Below are positions 52,261-61,166 of a DNA stretch of 64,000 nt, one piece after another (the stretch's first letter is position 1; every line of letters begins with the position of its first letter). Made by a program: the position numbers and the translations under genes. The stretch lies in assembly GCF_053078305.1 (NCBI RefSeq), contig NZ_CP166879.1; one strand, 5' to 3'. Below the pieces are notes generated by a model. The model worked only from the letters and a program-made list of their open reading frames with translations, made no database searches and had not been told where the DNA came from.

Positions 52261-53853
52261 TTATTTATTGGTGAGTACTACGTTCCATGGCAAGAGTTCA
52301 TCAACTCGGTTGGAAGGCCATTCCGGCAGTACGCTCAGGATATGGCGCAGATACGCTTCCGGATCGATACCGTTCAGACGGCAGGTGCCGATCAGCCCGT
52401 ACAACAGTGCTCCACGCTCGCCGCCGTGATCGCTGCCAAAGAACATAAAGTTTTTCTTTCCGAGACAGACTGCACGAAGCGCTCTTTCCGCAGCATTATT
52501 ATCCGCCTCCGCCAGACCGTCATCACTGTAATAACAGAGGGCATCCCACTGATTCAGTACATAGCTGAACGCTTCGCCCAGTCTGGATTTTTTCGACAGC
52601 GTACCATTCTTCTCCACCATCCATTCATGCAGCGACGTCAGTAACACTTTGCTTCGCTGCTGCCTGACGGAAAGACGCTCTGACTCCGGTAATCCCCGTA
52701 TTTCATCCTCGATGGCGTACAGTTCACTGATTCGCTTCAGGGCTTCTTCTGCCTTCGCACTTTTGCTGCTGATGTATACATCGTGGATTTTTCGCCGGGC
52801 ATGGGCCCAGCACGCAACTTCTGTCAGTGCACCACCTTCACGTTCTGCACTGAACAACCTGTCGTAACCTGTGAACGCATCCGCCTGCAGGATACCCCGG
52901 AAGGGGCGGAGGTGTTGCTCCGGGTGTTTCCCCTGCCGGTTCGGCGAGTACGCGAACCAGACCGCTGGAGGAGATGACGAACCCACATTGCGATCATCCC
53001 GGACATACGTCCAGATACGCCCTGTTTTCGCCTTTTTCTGACCCGGTGCCAGTACCTTTACCGGTGTGTCATCAGTGTGAACCTTGCGGGTGTTCATTAC
53101 ATAACGGTACAGGGCATCATTCACCGGTGTCATTAACTGGCAGCACGCGTCAACCCAGTTGGAGAGTAAGGCCCGGCTCAGTTCGACACCCTTGCGGGCA
53201 AAGATTTCACTCTGACGATACAGTGGCAGATGTTCGCAGTATTTTCCCGTTAACACGCGGGCAAGTAATCCGGGGCCCGCGATACCACGCTCTATCGGGC
53301 GGGACGGCGCCGGTGCTTCAACGATGCAGTCACATTTTGTACAGGCTTTTTTTACCCGTTCTGTGCGGATCACTTTCAGGGCGCTGCTCACCAGTTCCAG
53401 TTGTTCTGCACTGACTTCCCCCAGATAATCCAGCTCACCGCCACACTCCGGGCAACAGCTTTCTTCAGACTCCAGACGGTGTATTTCACGGGGAAGGTGT
53501 GCCGGTAACGGACGACGATGGCGCGACTGTCGCAACTGGCGGGGAACCTGTGGATCGTCTTCCCGCCCACTGTAACGATCGCTGTCCTGTTCGCGTTGTT
53601 TCAGCAGGGCCTCAGCCTGTTCAACTTCACGACGCAGTTTTTCAGAACGGGTACCGAACAGCATCCGGCGCAGTTTTTCTATCTGAGCCCGCAGATGTTC
53701 TATTTCCCGTTCATCTTCTTCGATCTTTTCTTCGGCACGTGCCAGTGCAGAGCGCAGGAAGGCCTCCGTCTCTTCAACCAGACTCAGTTGCTGGTCTTTC
53801 TGACGGAGCTGGCTTTCCAGTTCTGCAATGCGAATGAGGTATTTCTGACTCAT
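52261..53853 (-). CDS. IS66-family transposase (TnpC / Orf3)
   Basis: 530 aa; N-terminal coiled-coil/leucine zipper, zinc-finger-like CxxC pairs, DDE core. Confidence 0.9.
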   Translation of the reverse strand: MSQKYLIRIAELESQLRQKDQQLSLVEETEAFLRSALARAEEKIEEDEREIEHLRAQIEKLRRMLFGTRSEKLRREVEQAEALLKQREQDSDRYSGREDDPQVPRQLRQSRHRRPLPAHLPREIHRLESEESCCPECGGELDYLGEVSAEQLELVSSALKVIRTERVKKACTKCDCIVEAPAPSRPIERGIAGPGLLARVLTGKYCEHLPLYRQSEIFARKGVELSRALLSNWVDACCQLMTPVNDALYRYVMNTRKVHTDDTPVKVLAPGQKKAKTGRIWTYVRDDRNVGSSSPPAVWFAYSPNRQGKHPEQHLRPFRGILQADAFTGYDRLFSAEREGGALTEVACWAHARRKIHDVYISSKSAKAEEALKRISELYAIEDEIRGLPESERLSVRQQRSKVLLTSLHEWMVEKNGTLSKKSRLGEAFSYVLNQWDALCYYSDDGLAEADNNAAERALRAVCLGKKNFMFFGSDHGGERGALLYGLIGTCRLNGIDPEAYLRHILSVLPEWPSNRVDELLPWNVVLTNK

Positions 53854-55045: not shown

Positions 55046-57727
55046 TTAGCCTGACAGGCCTGACAAAAACGCGCCCAACTTCCCTTCTATATCACTGTCT
55101 ATAGTACGTAATCTTAGCAATGGCAGACCACATTTCTTCAGTATACTGTTTTTAAGTTCATCACGTTCAGCCTGGACACTGGTCAGATGATAGCCTCCAT
55201 CCACTTCAATAACCCCTAATGGAGTCTTCCCGACCTTATAGTAAACAACAAAGTCACAACTGGCCCGATTACGCATGAATAACAGTTCACGGTGAGTAAA
55301 ATCTCCCCGCTCCAGCAACACCAACTGATTCAGCGCTATTTGTGAATGAAACATCATGCTCCGATAACTATCCTGCGACAGGATATCCCGCAACAGGCAG
55401 GCCACAATCTGTTCTGACTTAAAGCGTGAATCATCTGAATTCAATCTACTATTCAGTCGTTCCAGTGATTTGTCATACTCACTGTACAGCAAATCAAATG
55501 CTGATATCACCGGGCTCTCGAAAATCTCTCCGTCATCAGCGTAGTATCTGATGTAACGAATCAGTGCCGCAATATGTCCAGCGTGGCGTTCAAATACATC
55601 ATTACCAGTCACCAACGTAAATTTGTTTCGGGCCCTTGAAACAGCGACATTCACCAGTTCAGGATTATCAACAAACGCGATATTCCGACTTTGCTGGCTG
55701 CTGCGTTTCTTATCCAGCACAGTGGAAAACACAATTTCATCGCACTCCCGTCCCTGAAATTTATGCACCGTCGATTTCACAAAATCAGCGGGCAGCACTG
55801 TTTCAGCCAGATTAACCTGTGCATTATATGGGGCGATATATCCCCTGCTACTTTCCTCATCCCAGTAATGTCCTTCCAGAGATTCAAGCTCCCTGAGATT
55901 TGAAAAATTACGGGTATGGTTTCCTTTTGCCGTGATGATCAGAGATAATGAGGCTTCACCTGAATCAAGCGTTAGCGGTATCAGAGCATTATCATAAAAC
56001 TGCTTATTACAAAATTGAATGATTTTAGGATGACAGCGATAATGCTCTTTAAGAAGAGTTACTGGCACCATATTCCTGAACGACATACAAACCGAATCAA
56101 GTAGACTATATTTCTCACAATTATAGTATTCTGCCGGTGGAGATGGGCTGTTCGGGAGTAATACAGGAACATGTGGAAGTTGCTTTCGATCCCCTACAAC
56201 GATTACATTACGGGCACATCCTAGTCCCAGAATGCCCGGAACAATATCCTGCTGTGAGGCTTCATCAATAATCACATAATCAAGAAGAGCCCCCTTACCG
56301 ATAGAGTTAATAATAGAATGCGTGCTGCTACCAATAACCGGAAAACGCTTTATAAAACGGTTAAATTCATCCCTGTATGTCTCTGCCGAGAATGAATTTC
56401 TTGTTGAAATATTTCTTCGCAGATGTTGTTTTAAATAAAGCACAGACCATGATGTCAGGCGCTCCAGTAAAATTTTAAAATCAGATTCCTTTAATACTTT
56501 CTCATATTCATTCAAAGAAATTTGTTTTTCCCGGATGGATTTTTCATAATAAGAAAGCTGAAGAGAAGTAAATAGTGCCAGCCTTCTCTCCGGAATCACC
56601 AATGGTTTGACTTTCAGTATCCTGAAGTTTAACAACAAATCAATTCTGTTTCTGAATCCAATCCGCCTGTCAGAAAGGTAATGAATATAAGCCATCAGGT
56701 CAGTTGTTTTTCGTGAGGAAAGTCGGTATTTGTGAGAAAAAAGCTCCTCCGGTCGAAGATTCTGACTCTGCCATTGCTGCAGGTATTTATACTCAACACT
56801 CAGTTCATTAATTTCTGCTTTTAACGAAGCAACCTGGTTGATAGCATTCAGGTGTTTTTTCACTTGTTGAAGTACATCATCAATCATATTTGCAGACGGT
56901 GAGTCAGGTAAGACTTCCTCAGAACGCGAAATCGACGTTGAAAAAAACTGTTGTCTGTTCTCCGTACTTCCCAGTCGTGCCACCACATATCCCAGTCGTT
57001 GTTTGTCCATTTTTTCATAAACATTACTGACAGCTGAGTTATTATTGGACAAAATTGCCACTGTTTTATTCTGAATTAATATATTGGCAACAATATTGAG
57101 AATAGTCTGTGTTTTACCTGTCCCAGGTGGTCCTTCAATAACTGAAATCTGTGAGGAAAATGCCCGTTCAACCGCCATTAACTGACTCTCATTCAGGCCA
57201 AACGGAAAAATCAACCCCCATGGCGAATCACGTTTTTTACTCTGTCCTGAACAGTATGCATGCAAGGCGGTATCCGGATGAGGAACTATTTTCTTTATCT
57301 GTCTGAGGATATTCTCATCGATATTTTTATTATTACCTCGAGCATAAAAAACACGTTCGTCAGCCACCCTGCACAAGTAATTAAACACGGCATGCTCTGT
57401 AAATGCTGAACACTGTTGAAAGTCAAGTCCGGTCGTTTTCATGATGTAGGGTCGTTCGCTCTCACGGTAATAAACAGCAGCATATTTATCACCATAGATA
57501 ATAACCCGTTCAGCCCGGGATGTTACAGCGTTCCCTTTCCTTTCGAGGAAAACATTTCGCAAAATTACAGTTGGCGTTATCTGACATACAGAAAGCGGAC
57601 GAGTATATTTTTTCCCGCTGCGAAAATGACAGGTCAGCATAACCTCTCCGTCATCATTTCCAGCCCACAGAGTCCAGTCGGTAATTTTATGAGTCTTATT
57701 TTCACCGTCAACACAAATCGTGACCAT
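55046..57727 (-). CDS. SF1 (Upf1/DNA2-like) helicase with C-terminal DUF559/Vsr-like nuclease-fold domain; candidate single-gene defence protein
   Basis: 893 aa; Walker A GPPGTGKT; motif II VIIDEASQ; C-terminal DFVVYYK...GVIEVDGGYH...LPLLRLR resembles the DUF559/Vsr-like PD-(D/E)xK fold; about 190 aa N-terminal domain of unknown function. Confidence 0.7.
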   Translation of the reverse strand: MVTICVDGENKTHKITDWTLWAGNDDGEVMLTCHFRSGKKYTRPLSVCQITPTVILRNVFLERKGNAVTSRAERVIIYGDKYAAVYYRESERPYIMKTTGLDFQQCSAFTEHAVFNYLCRVADERVFYARGNNKNIDENILRQIKKIVPHPDTALHAYCSGQSKKRDSPWGLIFPFGLNESQLMAVERAFSSQISVIEGPPGTGKTQTILNIVANILIQNKTVAILSNNNSAVSNVYEKMDKQRLGYVVARLGSTENRQQFFSTSISRSEEVLPDSPSANMIDDVLQQVKKHLNAINQVASLKAEINELSVEYKYLQQWQSQNLRPEELFSHKYRLSSRKTTDLMAYIHYLSDRRIGFRNRIDLLLNFRILKVKPLVIPERRLALFTSLQLSYYEKSIREKQISLNEYEKVLKESDFKILLERLTSWSVLYLKQHLRRNISTRNSFSAETYRDEFNRFIKRFPVIGSSTHSIINSIGKGALLDYVIIDEASQQDIVPGILGLGCARNVIVVGDRKQLPHVPVLLPNSPSPPAEYYNCEKYSLLDSVCMSFRNMVPVTLLKEHYRCHPKIIQFCNKQFYDNALIPLTLDSGEASLSLIITAKGNHTRNFSNLRELESLEGHYWDEESSRGYIAPYNAQVNLAETVLPADFVKSTVHKFQGRECDEIVFSTVLDKKRSSQQSRNIAFVDNPELVNVAVSRARNKFTLVTGNDVFERHAGHIAALIRYIRYYADDGEIFESPVISAFDLLYSEYDKSLERLNSRLNSDDSRFKSEQIVACLLRDILSQDSYRSMMFHSQIALNQLVLLERGDFTHRELLFMRNRASCDFVVYYKVGKTPLGVIEVDGGYHLTSVQAERDELKNSILKKCGLPLLRLRTIDSDIEGKLGAFLSGLSG

Positions 57728-58235
57728 ATTCTCACTCAGTAATTATCATTTAACTTACGGAAAATTGTTATGAAACTCCCGATATTTACCCGGTAAAATA
57801 CTTGTCATTGTTTGAAGCCCTCCCTAAAAAATGACCAGGCATTTGATAACCCGGTGTATTTCTCCCGATATGAGCTCCGGAGGATTTTCCACAACTCCGG
57901 GTGTGTTAACATATTCCCGCCGGCCATATATACATTGAGTTCAGTCATAACAGTCAATACCAGGATTACAGGAACGCGATGCTGATACGCTGGTTATTGA
58001 ATACTGGTAGCCCCTAACTACTAATTCATCACGATACTCTGTACTTACTGTTTTTTACAACCATTCCCCCAGGTAAAAGAGTCCATTTATCATGCCCCTC
58101 TTTAACGCCTGCCAGCATAATTTAAGAATGGATACCGTGGGTGGAATTAACAATACCTGCTCAGGCCAATGCCATGTAACCGCCTCACTGAAAAAGCCAG
58201 ATCATCTAACCAGGTACAGACCAACATCGCAAAAA

Positions 58236-58385
58236 TTACCATGTAGCACGAACTGCTGTCATATTTCTGTTCAGGTATGCCGCTATTTCGCGGGTTTTCT
58301 TCACGCCATAATGCGTTTCAAGGTAGCGAACATCTTCGATTGTCCATGGTGTGCGCGCTCTTCCGGGGGTATTTTCCATTTCCAT
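58236..58385 (-). CDS. small ORF (49 aa) with Myb/SANT-like pattern; putative DNA-binding protein
   Basis: Not in the supplied ORF track (below 60 aa); starts 16 bp downstream of the ImpA-N gene stop; W-x(2)-E-D-x(2)-L-x(3)-YG...IAxxL.R...R..W spacing. Confidence 0.35.
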   Translation of the reverse strand: MEMENTPGRARTPWTIEDVRYLETHYGVKKTREIAAYLNRNMTAVRATW

Positions 58386-58400
58386 GTTTTATCTCAGCCA

Positions 58401-59765
58401 TTATGGCTGCCTCTCCTGATTGCCTGTGTGTTCCATCTGATAACGATTAATCAGCTGATTCAGTGCCATTTCAGCCTGTTTTTGCTGCTGTTCACTGCCA
58501 TTCTGATTACGGGCTTCATCATAGCGACGTAACTGCTCTTCTGCCGGGATATGCCGGTTAAAAGCCTGCATGATGCCAAACACCTCCGTTTTCAGTTCAC
58601 TGACCGTCATGTATTTTCCCCGCTGTTCATCCAGACGGTTCAGGCGCTCAGCCAGCTGCTGTAAGCGGGTCATGCCTTCGTTCCAGCCCGTCATCGCCTC
58701 TTCCGGAAGCGCTCGGCTCCTTACGCTCTTCTGCCAGTTATCCACCATTTCCTGAACACGGGGATTGTCGGGGAAAAGTCCCCTCAGTTGCTGCAGCAGC
58801 TGCGCACTGCGTTGCAGGTTGTATGCCGGCGGTAGTTCTGTCAGTCGCGTTATCTGCTGACCGGAAAGGGTTATCCACTCTGACGCATGATTTAACAGTG
58901 AGGGTGTTCTGCTGAGTTGCGCCATCTGGTCTGCTGAAAGCACATCCGGTAGTGGTGCCAGCAGCGCCCTGAGTTGCTGCTCCGCCGATGATGGCTGTGT
59001 CAGAAACTGCCATCCCGGAATGACCACGCTGACAGTCAGCAATGCCGCACAGACACCAGCCACAAACGGTTTCAGAAACGTGGGCGGGGATTTCTGAAGG
59101 GAGGGTGTGGGTTCTGCTTTTGTTTCAGAAACAACATACACCAGACGGGAGTACGGCAGGGGCTGATGTTCCTGTACATCCGGAGCATCAGACCGGAGTG
59201 CCTGAGCCGGAAGGGTTACCGGCGACGATACTTCACCCTGCACAGGCTGATTCTCCAGACGGGTGATATATCCCTTCACCATGGCTTCCGGTAAAGCCAC
59301 TTTACTGCTCTGTTTAAGTTCATGCCGGGCCAGTATGTCACTCAGCGTTTTCAGGCATGTTTCTGTCTGATACAGCAGGGGCAGATTGTCACGCTCATCC
59401 GGTGGCATGGCCCGGAGCGTTTTTTGCAGACGACTGAACAGACCGGTAATAATTTCCAGCCGGGCGTGGGTATTCAGCGGCCACATCACTGACCAGTGAT
59501 GCCGGGTCAGCGCCACAATCAGAGCCAGCCCTTCATTCAGACCACTTAACCCTGCTGTATGCATCCGGGCGATGGTGTACCAGGATACCGTCTGTAATTC
59601 CACGCCATTGTGTTCATACAGACGCAGGCAGAGCGTCTCCACATAACGCCAGTCCACATCCGGACGTGCCGGGTGAGTCAGCTTGCTGATTTCATCGCGC
59701 AGGGCAGCATAATCCGGTAATGACCGGGGGTCATTACCTGTTTTCAGTTTTACTTCAGAAGTCAT
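58401..59765 (-). CDS. T6SS-associated ImpA-N domain protein (VasL/TagA-like)
   Basis: 454 aa; N-terminal ImpA_N-like region (GNDPRSLPDYAALRDEISKL), central TM segment; adjacent to T6SS core genes. Confidence 0.7.
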   Translation of the reverse strand: MTSEVKLKTGNDPRSLPDYAALRDEISKLTHPARPDVDWRYVETLCLRLYEHNGVELQTVSWYTIARMHTAGLSGLNEGLALIVALTRHHWSVMWPLNTHARLEIITGLFSRLQKTLRAMPPDERDNLPLLYQTETCLKTLSDILARHELKQSSKVALPEAMVKGYITRLENQPVQGEVSSPVTLPAQALRSDAPDVQEHQPLPYSRLVYVVSETKAEPTPSLQKSPPTFLKPFVAGVCAALLTVSVVIPGWQFLTQPSSAEQQLRALLAPLPDVLSADQMAQLSRTPSLLNHASEWITLSGQQITRLTELPPAYNLQRSAQLLQQLRGLFPDNPRVQEMVDNWQKSVRSRALPEEAMTGWNEGMTRLQQLAERLNRLDEQRGKYMTVSELKTEVFGIMQAFNRHIPAEEQLRRYDEARNQNGSEQQQKQAEMALNQLINRYQMEHTGNQERQP

Positions 59766-59819: not shown

Positions 59820-60128
59820 TCAGTGTAATACCGGTACCCGGGAAAGGTATTCCACCGCACGGATGATTGCCGGTGTCACATCCCACCGCCGCTTCAGAAC
59901 CGCCAATAACTCACTGAGTGTTCTGATATAACGTTCAGTGAACAGTCGCTGCCCGTCCCTGGTTAAATGAAAACCGGACTGATTACAGGTAATGGTAATA
60001 TGGCAGGCATCATTACCAATATATACGGCTTCCTGTGGCCTGAATCTGACATTCCAGTGCCAGGAATACGGAGCATGATTCAGATAAAAAAGGCGCATCT
60101 GGATGTCATTAAATAACGGGTTCATCAT
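59820..60128 (-). CDS. hypothetical T6SS-cluster protein (102 aa)
   Basis: ORF between the ImpA-N gene and tssE; no motif. Confidence 0.45.
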   Translation of the reverse strand: MMNPLFNDIQMRLFYLNHAPYSWHWNVRFRPQEAVYIGNDACHITITCNQSGFHLTRDGQRLFTERYIRTLSELLAVLKRRWDVTPAIIRAVEYLSRVPVLH

Positions 60129-60177: not shown

Positions 60178-60630
60178 TCACCCCCTGAAAGTCATCACAT
60201 TATCCACAAACTGCTGTTGCTTCAGATATCGCAGTAACACCCTGCCCTCCGGCATAAAAGTTGTTCCGTAACGAACCAGTCCTGCATCTTTAAGTTCTGC
60301 ATCAATGACATAATGCAACTCACCAGGCTGAGTCTGTTCCTGCATCGTCACCCCGACACGCTTAATACGTGGCTCATACTTCAGCAGAACATCTGAAAGC
60401 ACACACATCAGTTGATGCGCCGTTCCCGGCATTCCCTGCAGAATGCTTGTCATATCCGGCAGACCATAATCCGGAAGATGTTTAAGGCTTCCGGCCCGGG
60501 TATTCAGAATACGCTGCATGTTATCGAGCACCGAAAGAATAACCTGCTCTTCCTCACTGACCTGGTTTAACTCCAGCCCGCCAGCGAAATTGCCATAGAG
60601 AATTTCATAAAGGGAAGGACGCGGCATCAC
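60178..60630 (-). CDS. tssE: type VI secretion baseplate protein TssE (gp25-like)
   Basis: 150 aa; gp25-like pattern (SLYEIL...LPDYGLPD...); adjacent to tssJ/G/F. Confidence 0.8.
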   Translation of the reverse strand: MMPRPSLYEILYGNFAGGLELNQVSEEEQVILSVLDNMQRILNTRAGSLKHLPDYGLPDMTSILQGMPGTAHQLMCVLSDVLLKYEPRIKRVGVTMQEQTQPGELHYVIDAELKDAGLVRYGTTFMPEGRVLLRYLKQQQFVDNVMTFRG

Positions 60631-61166
60631 TATTTATCCTTCACCGGTAACAGCGTCAGGGTGTTACCGGATACTTCAATAAGACGGGGCGTGTCCGGCT
60701 CAAGCTCATCCCGGCTCAGCACCACCCGCCAGGTATTTTTCTTCCGGTCAGGCTCCAGAAACATTGCTGCCACACCGGTAAATTTCGCCGCATCATCCAG
60801 AGGCATATCCACGGCCACTGAACCACCTGGCTGCAGCCATACATCTTTCTGTGCAATGATATCGCCTGCCAGAATTTCACTGTCCCCCGTAAAAAGCGCC
60901 TGATAATCCGCGCTGTCAAAATTCCGGTTGTCTTTAAGCTGATAAATCCGCACCACAACCGACAGGGGAATACCGGCAGCACTGGTGTTAATGGCCTCCC
61001 TGGCACGAATATCAAGGTGAAGTGTTTTTATCTGTCGGTAAAACAGGGATTTCGTGGCAGATACCGTACCGTCTGCCACTCTTTGCGTCAGGCCACACCC
61101 TGATAACGACAGGGAAAACAACGCAATAATCAGACCGTAACCAGTCTTACCAGCGATAATCGCCAT
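60630..61166 (-). CDS. tssJ: type VI secretion lipoprotein TssJ (SciN-like)
   Basis: 178 aa; lipobox LSGC; position between tssG and tssE. Confidence 0.8.
   Translation of the reverse strand: MAIIAGKTGYGLIIALFSLSLSGCGLTQRVADGTVSATKSLFYRQIKTLHLDIRAREAINTSAAGIPLSVVVRIYQLKDNRNFDSADYQALFTGDSEILAGDIIAQKDVWLQPGGSVAVDMPLDDAAKFTGVAAMFLEPDRKKNTWRVVLSRDELEPDTPRLIEVSGNTLTLLPVKDK

Follow-up and report, generated by a model that had tools for sequence, protein, structure and literature searches.

Eukaryotic Myb proteins, such as c-Myb (R1R2R3), B-Myb and the plant R2R3-MYB proteins (PF00249), consist of tandem three-helix repeats of about 50 residues, with the signature W-x2-E-E-x2-L ... Y ... LPGR(T/S)-x3-(V/I). 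The full tryptophan triad is often missing in Myb-like and SANT domains. Among bacterial proteins, GcrA of Caulobacter (PF07750) comprises an N-terminal DNA-binding domain of about 45 amino acids and a C-terminal sigma-70-binding domain. A phage family, PHROG 323 ('transcriptional regulator, D5-like'), is described by a profile of 319 positions. The T6SS clusters of bacteria possess tag genes such as tagA, which lie outside the 13 core genes and are conserved inside the clusters or at their edge. In the account of Santin et al. 2018 that is cited in PMC6745524, an architecture of ImpA_N, TM and VasL marks a TagA-class T6SS accessory protein and not the core protein TssA. Here, we compare with these systems a 49-codon open reading frame (ORF) located at the end of a T6SS cluster. 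The ORF lies in a stretch of 64,000 nucleotides from contig NZ_CP166879.1 (assembly GCF_053078305.1), referred to below as the window. The window is E. coli DNA, and its closest genome is that of strain 04-00955 (locus L001), with 99.9% identity. We assign the ORF to the ordinary pseudogene fragments; it lies where the T6SS cluster meets a region resembling a defence island.

The cluster end in the window is encoded on the minus strand and consists of tssF (62202-63965), tssG (61147-62247), tssJ (60630-61166), tssE (60178-60630), a gene for a 102-aa hypothetical protein without a Pfam match (59820-60128) and a tagA-type T6SS accessory gene (58401-59765). Between 59820 and 63965, the gene order matches that of the loci in which the intact parent gene of the ORF is found. 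The place of the 102-aa ORF is taken in homologous clusters by a DUF1283 protein or another small, unassigned protein (L011, L019, L020). The tagA-type gene is intact and encodes 454 amino acids with an ImpA_N (4e-17) and a VasL domain (3e-38). An earlier note, based on the letters of the window, had described it as an ImpA-N gene; the domain was correctly recognised, but the combination of ImpA_N and VasL assigns the protein to the TagA class and not to plain ImpA/TssA. The gene is likewise a single intact 454-aa ORF in L001 (6701-8065) and in L002 (5154-6518). In many E. coli genomes, RefSeq/PGAP shows the tagA-type gene as three 'incomplete, partial' pseudogene pieces (VasL; hypothetical or POTRA; ImpA_N), which looks like an annotation artefact and not like real decay.

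Downstream of the tagA-type stop codon (TAA, 58403-58401) follow 15 nucleotides and then the ATG of the ORF at 58385, from which 49 codons and a TAA extend on the minus strand to 58236. The encoded peptide is MEMENTPGRARTPWTIEDVRYLETHYGVKKTREIAAYLNRNMTAVRATW. The ORF is thus present where the earlier note had placed it, with an identical peptide, and the distance of 16 bp given there is right within one base. The orientation shared with the upstream gene, for which no strand had been named, is confirmed as well. The description of the ORF as unannotated fails for two RefSeq genomes, in which it is listed as a hypothetical protein, one of them being 04-00955 (WP_157911220.1). The PGAP version in this strain has 54 amino acids, because a deletion of one nucleotide in an A-run brings an upstream ATG into frame. 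This A-run on the 5' side of the ORF varies between AAAA and AAA (window 58386-58402; L001 6690-6701). The upstream ATG overlaps the tagA stop codon (TAATG) and is in frame in 04-00955 and out of frame in the window.

Between 55000 and 64000, we counted 88 overlapping ORFs of at least 30 amino acids. As ORFs of this size are frequent by chance, homology alone can validate the 49-aa ORF. Such homology is provided by the same locus in other E. coli strains. The gene directly following tagA in strain STEC711 (L002) encodes 204 amino acids, and its N-terminus is the window peptide. At the same position, strain GXU-23-25-310 (L004) encodes a protein of 210 amino acids, annotated by PGAP as 'SANT/Myb-like DNA-binding domain-containing protein'. 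We refer to this intact four-repeat gene as Myb4 and to the window ORF as its stump. Of the first 40 residues of the stump, 39 are identical to the intact 210-aa allele. The stump furthermore aligns with the family profile in hhalign (probability 98.8%, E 4e-17), with the relative P0086, which shares 37% identity with the intact E. coli protein, in BLASTP (E 4e-12), and with PHROG 323 (E 8e-7). Searches of Pfam, NCBIfam and PADLOC with the 49-aa peptide returned no significant match, and none to a Pfam Myb family. DUF7841, which alone came up (E 0.069), was dismissed as an identity of the peptide. An RNA element at the site was rejected, as Rfam gave no match at E ≤ 1 over 57600-58600. Two plus-strand ORFs (58092-58532, 146 aa; 58277-58450, 57 aa) were judged spurious, being antisense to the homology-supported 3' end of tagA and the stump.

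Structurally, the Myb4 protein is a series of four Myb-like repeats. In the alignment, the consensus W-x2-E-(E/L)-x2-L-x3-Y ... LPGR(T/S)-x3-(V/I)-x3-A-x2-LG occurs four times. The AF2 model of the intact 210-aa allele (pLDDT 88.6) displays four three-helix units, with helices predicted at residues 16-25/31-38/42-52, 64-73/80-86/92-101, 112-131/138-147 and 163-171/177-183/189-209. Each repeat spans about 50 residues and is a predicted three-helix bundle with a helix-turn-helix. The best Foldseek matches of the intact protein in the PDB are the multi-Myb DNA binders SNAPC4, Reb1 and c-Myb R1R2R3. The family profile (alignment A5) matches c-Myb (1h88_C) with an E-value of 7.8e-8, and B-Myb and MYB3 were matched too. 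PF00249 (Myb_DNA-binding) is detected in 14 of 20 family members (best E 3.5e-8); taken alone, the intact E. coli proteins score below its gathering cut-off (21.7 and 18.4 versus 24.4 bits). The intact protein also matches PHROG 323 'transcriptional regulator' (E 5e-22). These results bear out the Myb/SANT-like character that had been read from the letters alone. The stump, modelled with the family alignment as guide, is predicted to form one three-helix unit (pLDDT 80.8, helices 16-25/31-38/42-48), that is, repeat 1 with its third helix shortened to residues 42-48.

The tryptophan triad (W-x18-19-W-x18-19-W) is incomplete in Myb4. Only the first tryptophan of each repeat is invariant (W14, W62, W110, W161), and the other core positions are occupied by I/L and A/M. 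We therefore regard the unit as a Myb-like repeat and not as a canonical Myb repeat, with membership of the superfamily unaffected. NCBIfam and PADLOC gave no match with the intact protein, and the label of a defence-system component was rejected for Myb4 on these grounds. The size of the family became visible only by an exhaustive profile search, which yielded 7752 cluster representatives at E ≤ 1e-3 and 261 at E ≤ 1e-30, compared to only 12 relatives from a word-indexed protein search. Among the profile matches are about 20 mutually divergent proteins of roughly 200-235 amino acids that align end to end, together with longer proteins that have more repeats.

The point at which the gene is cut can be located precisely. 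DNA homology to the intact alleles in L002 and L004 runs through ...GCAGTTCGTGC to nucleotide 140 of the ORF, which corresponds to window position 58246, and stops there (junction 58236-58246, minus strand). The bases past the junction (TACATGGTAA) create T48, W49 and the stop codon TAA. Codons 1 to about 46 hence belong to Myb4, and T48, W49 and TAA are derived from the junction. The W49 of the ORF is no Myb tryptophan. For the same reason, the terminal '...R..W' of the spacing proposed earlier stems from the junction and not from Myb4, which has AVRAMAYLVG at this place in its intact form. L001, L015, L016 and L017 share this junction. The DNA beyond it, between the stump and a helicase gene (57728-58235, minus strand), is replacement DNA composed of two parts. 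The segment 58079-58235 was found only in genomes having the window-type junction, and the segment 57728-58078 accompanies the helicase gene in more than 1000 E. coli genomes. No counterpart of the post-junction DNA (58235 to 58000) was detected around the intact loci L002 and L004 over a distance of 10 kb, which rules out a simple internal deletion and makes the site a replacement junction. The promoter and terminator scan, otherwise at background level, predicted a terminator-like hairpin at 57855-57834 (minus strand). This is the first such site downstream of tagA in that orientation, so that none separates tagA from the stump.

Taken together, these data make it very probable that the window ORF is the non-functional 5' stump of Myb4, cut off at the boundary of the T6SS cluster and the variable region by a replacement or deletion. 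The intact gene would have encoded about 210 amino acids with four tandem repeats as the last gene of the T6SS cluster, directly after tagA. An event at the variable boundary, presumably the replacement of the adjacent island, would then have removed codons from about 47 to 210 and joined unrelated DNA, which would have supplied the T-W-stop ending by chance. As expected for a gene remnant, the ORF runs collinear with the start of a longer gene that is intact at this locus in related genomes, and it has a discrete end. With its native start kept 15 nucleotides after tagA and no predicted terminator between the two, the stump is probably still transcribed together with tagA, and it may be translated.

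We considered whether the 49-aa peptide instead functions as a small protein, with one Myb-like repeat translated together with TagA, and acts as a mini-regulator, as a dominant-negative form or as a competitor for the binding partner of the four-repeat protein. The retained start and 5' region, with no terminator-like site before 57855, would allow for its production. Its frame is open in the window, L001, L015 and L017, and in most genomes with the junction; the AF2 model retains a three-helix unit, and single Myb-like domains of about 45 amino acids can bind DNA, as does the DNA-binding domain of GcrA (5yiv_A). Against this stands the record of selection. The stump differs from the intact allele at five positions with an omega of 1.19, compared to 0.22 for codons 46-198 of two intact alleles. 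The stump of strain STEC005, also with an open frame, shows 20.5 nonsynonymous and 6.5 synonymous differences from the window (omega 0.83), among them Arg in place of the family-invariant Leu38 and Ser in place of Arg46. These stump values, about 0.8 to 1.2, derive from 49 codons in few genomes and are blurred by recombination between alleles. The stump of strain 1105 differs from that of the window by one substitution. In PapRG-04-4, W14 is replaced by a stop codon, accompanied by deletions. Furthermore, the C-terminal residues of the peptide come from the junction, and the shortened third helix is the recognition helix of Myb domains. In this small sample, purifying selection on the remaining frame is absent, and the ORF is, as far as sequence comparison can tell, drifting without maintenance by selection.

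The distribution of the gene in E. coli points in the same direction. Among 5426 complete genomes, 21 keep at least 80% of Myb4, about 14 possess the window-type stump, and about 241, including the type strain ATCC 11775, have only some 110 nt of the 5' end, cut at about nt 107. The last 104 nt of the 3' end alone are found in three genomes. Stumps thereby exceed intact copies by more than 10:1. Other forms in the protein database comprise 118 aa, 152 aa with an internal deletion, and a fusion of TssK with the C-terminus of Myb4. The latter (P0008, 299 aa, on E. coli-like contigs) joins the N-terminal 235 or so residues of TssK (PF05936) to the last 65 or so of Myb4, which implies a large deletion of most of the T6SS cluster from tssK to the end of Myb4. 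As the cuts fall at differing points across lineages, no particular short form is preserved. In E. coli, Myb4 thus appears, from these alleles, to have been eroded repeatedly and independently. The earlier note had suggested that the ORF could be a small regulator or accessory factor; it is no complete small gene, as it represents the 5' 46 or so codons of a gene of 204-210 codons. The 49-codon frame, on whose conservation that proposal was made to depend, is not constant in related genomes, where the gene is four times longer, cut elsewhere, drifting (omega about 0.8) or interrupted by a stop codon. We consider a function for the peptide improbable.

The two remaining explanations are extremely improbable. 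A chance ORF with a fortuitous Myb-like pattern, unrelated to any gene, might be expected from the abundance of short ORFs and the lack of a significant Pfam match for the peptide alone, but is refuted by the near-identity, over 40 residues, with the N-terminus of the protein encoded at this locus in other strains and by the hhalign and BLASTP matches given above. A sequencing or assembly artefact in a strain that really has the intact gene has no specific support, although the A-run, which differs by 1 nt between the window and L001, documents small indel variation or error nearby. It is contradicted by the junction and its downstream sequence, a region of 461 nt with 80-100% identity among 14 independently assembled complete E. 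coli genomes.

In contrast to the stump, the intact gene is consistently associated with T6SS. Genes of T6SS flank Myb4 homologues in 10 of the 11 contexts with readable flanks, across divergent genomes and at 32-44% identity (E. coli, L005/L006, L009, L010, L011/L012, L013, L014, L018, L019 and L020). Myb4 is usually the next gene after tagA. The homologue follows tagA directly in L013, in the Citrobacter braakii plasmid L019 and in L010, where the two overlap by ATGA. In L005/L006, a 104-aa gene is inserted between them. L011/L012 and L020 display the order tssA...tssF-tssG-tssJ-tssE-x-tagA-Myb4, which is the same as in the window. The homologue of L014 overlaps a C-terminal VasL fragment by ATGA, and that of L009 is located after tssE. 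The link to T6SS drawn in the earlier note accordingly applies to the intact gene, which has T6SS neighbours and is often translationally coupled to the upstream gene, and not to the 49-aa form as a stand-alone gene. The one exception is L007, a 3.9-kb contig of Cedecea sulfonylureivorans with no T6SS gene within the contig. It encodes two tandem paralogues of the four-repeat protein (682-2118). The contigs of P0031, P0072 and P0103 measure 1.1-1.4 kb, with the ends of T6SS genes on two of them, whereas the third (L021) was uninformative. A peptide-pattern scan of genome contigs recovered a single locus (Cedecea); its patterns were probably too strict, making it unusable as a taxonomic census. 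In the literature library that we searched, no paper joins T6SS with Myb-like proteins, and nothing relevant appeared under SANT or VasL.

A different arrangement is seen in L018, the plasmid pJBIWA002_1 of Enterobacter asburiae. Here, the homologue is transcribed away from tssBCKL, and a type I-E cas operon follows shortly downstream of it. On this IncFII plasmid (L018 1-12299), the T6SS cluster (tssB, tssC, tssK, tssL and others) and the type I-E CRISPR-Cas operon are arranged back to back, with the Myb4 homologue as the sole gene between them, co-directional with cas3. The position divergent from tssB fits a regulator role. The downstream neighbours of the homologues are different in every case; the constant partner of Myb4 is the T6SS cluster and not the islands. 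Judging from fold, homology and synteny, the intact Myb4 protein is most likely a DNA-binding regulator or accessory factor linked to the T6SS cluster.

The genes that occupy the region beyond the Myb4 position vary between E. coli strains. STEC711 has a Zorya type II system (L002 700-4167), FDAARGOS_536 a part of a Qat system, comprising qatC and a KAP-family NTPase (L003 1-4884), and GXU-23-25-310 genes for a BRO-N protein and a DEAD helicase (L004 1-4782). In the window (55046-58235), the stump is abutted by the gene of a superfamily-1 helicase of 893 amino acids (55046-57727, minus strand) with AAA_11/AAA_12 and a C-terminal DUF2726. In PADLOC, this helicase scores best against the helicase parts of Mokosh MkoA/MkoC (4e-43, 2e-41) and against PDC-S37. 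More than 1000 E. coli genomes possess it, O157:H7 among them, and ibrA/ibrB-like genes are often its neighbours. As the content past Myb4 differs by strain, this region behaves like a hotspot for defence islands with the end of the T6SS cluster as its anchor, and the stump indicates where the cluster gives way to it. Further along the window, between PTS genes and the helicase, lies a complete IS66-family transposase gene (DDE_Tnp_IS66, 3e-97; 52261-53853, minus strand), at whose site L001 has only a 285-nt transposase fragment. The window also contains a 2357-aa ORF (23798-30871, minus strand) with an antisense 1844-aa ORF (24794-30328, plus strand), the two overlapping by 5.5 kb. Antisense frames of such length are, as a rule, a sign of repetitive sequence or biased composition, as in the genes of large adhesins or Rhs-type proteins.

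The stump itself carries little weight, and its due annotation is that of a pseudogene fragment and not of a small regulator. As the exact boundary between an E. coli T6SS-1-type cluster and the variable region (Zorya II, Qat, Mokosh-like helicase), it is useful for hotspot mapping. The parent family is of greater interest, as a bacterial protein of four eukaryote-style Myb repeats that is found beside tagA and other T6SS genes across deep divergence. We tentatively postulate, giving it just short of an even chance, that Myb4 represents an unrecognised T6SS-associated family of Enterobacterales. Its members would be four-repeat Myb/SANT-like DNA binders that regulate or serve this T6SS subtype, with genes that mostly follow tagA directly and in some cases are translationally coupled to it. 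They would have been lost repeatedly in E. coli by turnover of the hotspot, the window ORF being one scar of this process. A bolder variant, in which the stump continues to be produced and interferes with the DNA or protein partner of Myb4, is less likely. Should Myb4 regulate T6SS, its many losses in E. coli would be relevant to strain differences in T6SS expression.

Compared to the known systems, Myb4 resembles the eukaryotic Myb proteins most in its architecture, sharing their tandem repeats of about 50 residues in three helices and their signature, and its profile spans three consecutive repeats of c-Myb. It differs from them in being bacterial, in having four repeats, in lacking a transactivation region and in retaining only the first tryptophan; its DNA binding is putative. 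The DNA-binding domain of GcrA resembles Myb4 repeat 2 (Pfam E 7e-4 to 1.4e-3; PDB 5yiu, E 0.009), and Foldseek superimposes it on one repeat with a TM-score of 0.85 over 44 columns (5yiv_A). Only positions 2-49 of the 155 in the PF07750 profile are matched, at 19.5-20.4 bits versus a cut-off of 26.9, which falls short of the full-length GcrA architecture. In contrast to GcrA, it consists of four repeats and not of one domain, has no C-terminal sigma-70-binding domain and occupies another genomic context. PHROG 323 is of the same repeat type as Myb4. PHROG 323, however, is a phage family, whereas the Myb4 family is chromosomal or plasmid-borne and linked to T6SS; a tblastn search of 50,697 phage records gave one weak match only. 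With tag genes such as tagA, Myb4 shares its conserved place inside or at the edge of T6SS clusters and outside the core genes. In contrast to these, Myb4 looks like a cytoplasmic DNA binder and not like a structural component, with a putative role in T6SS.
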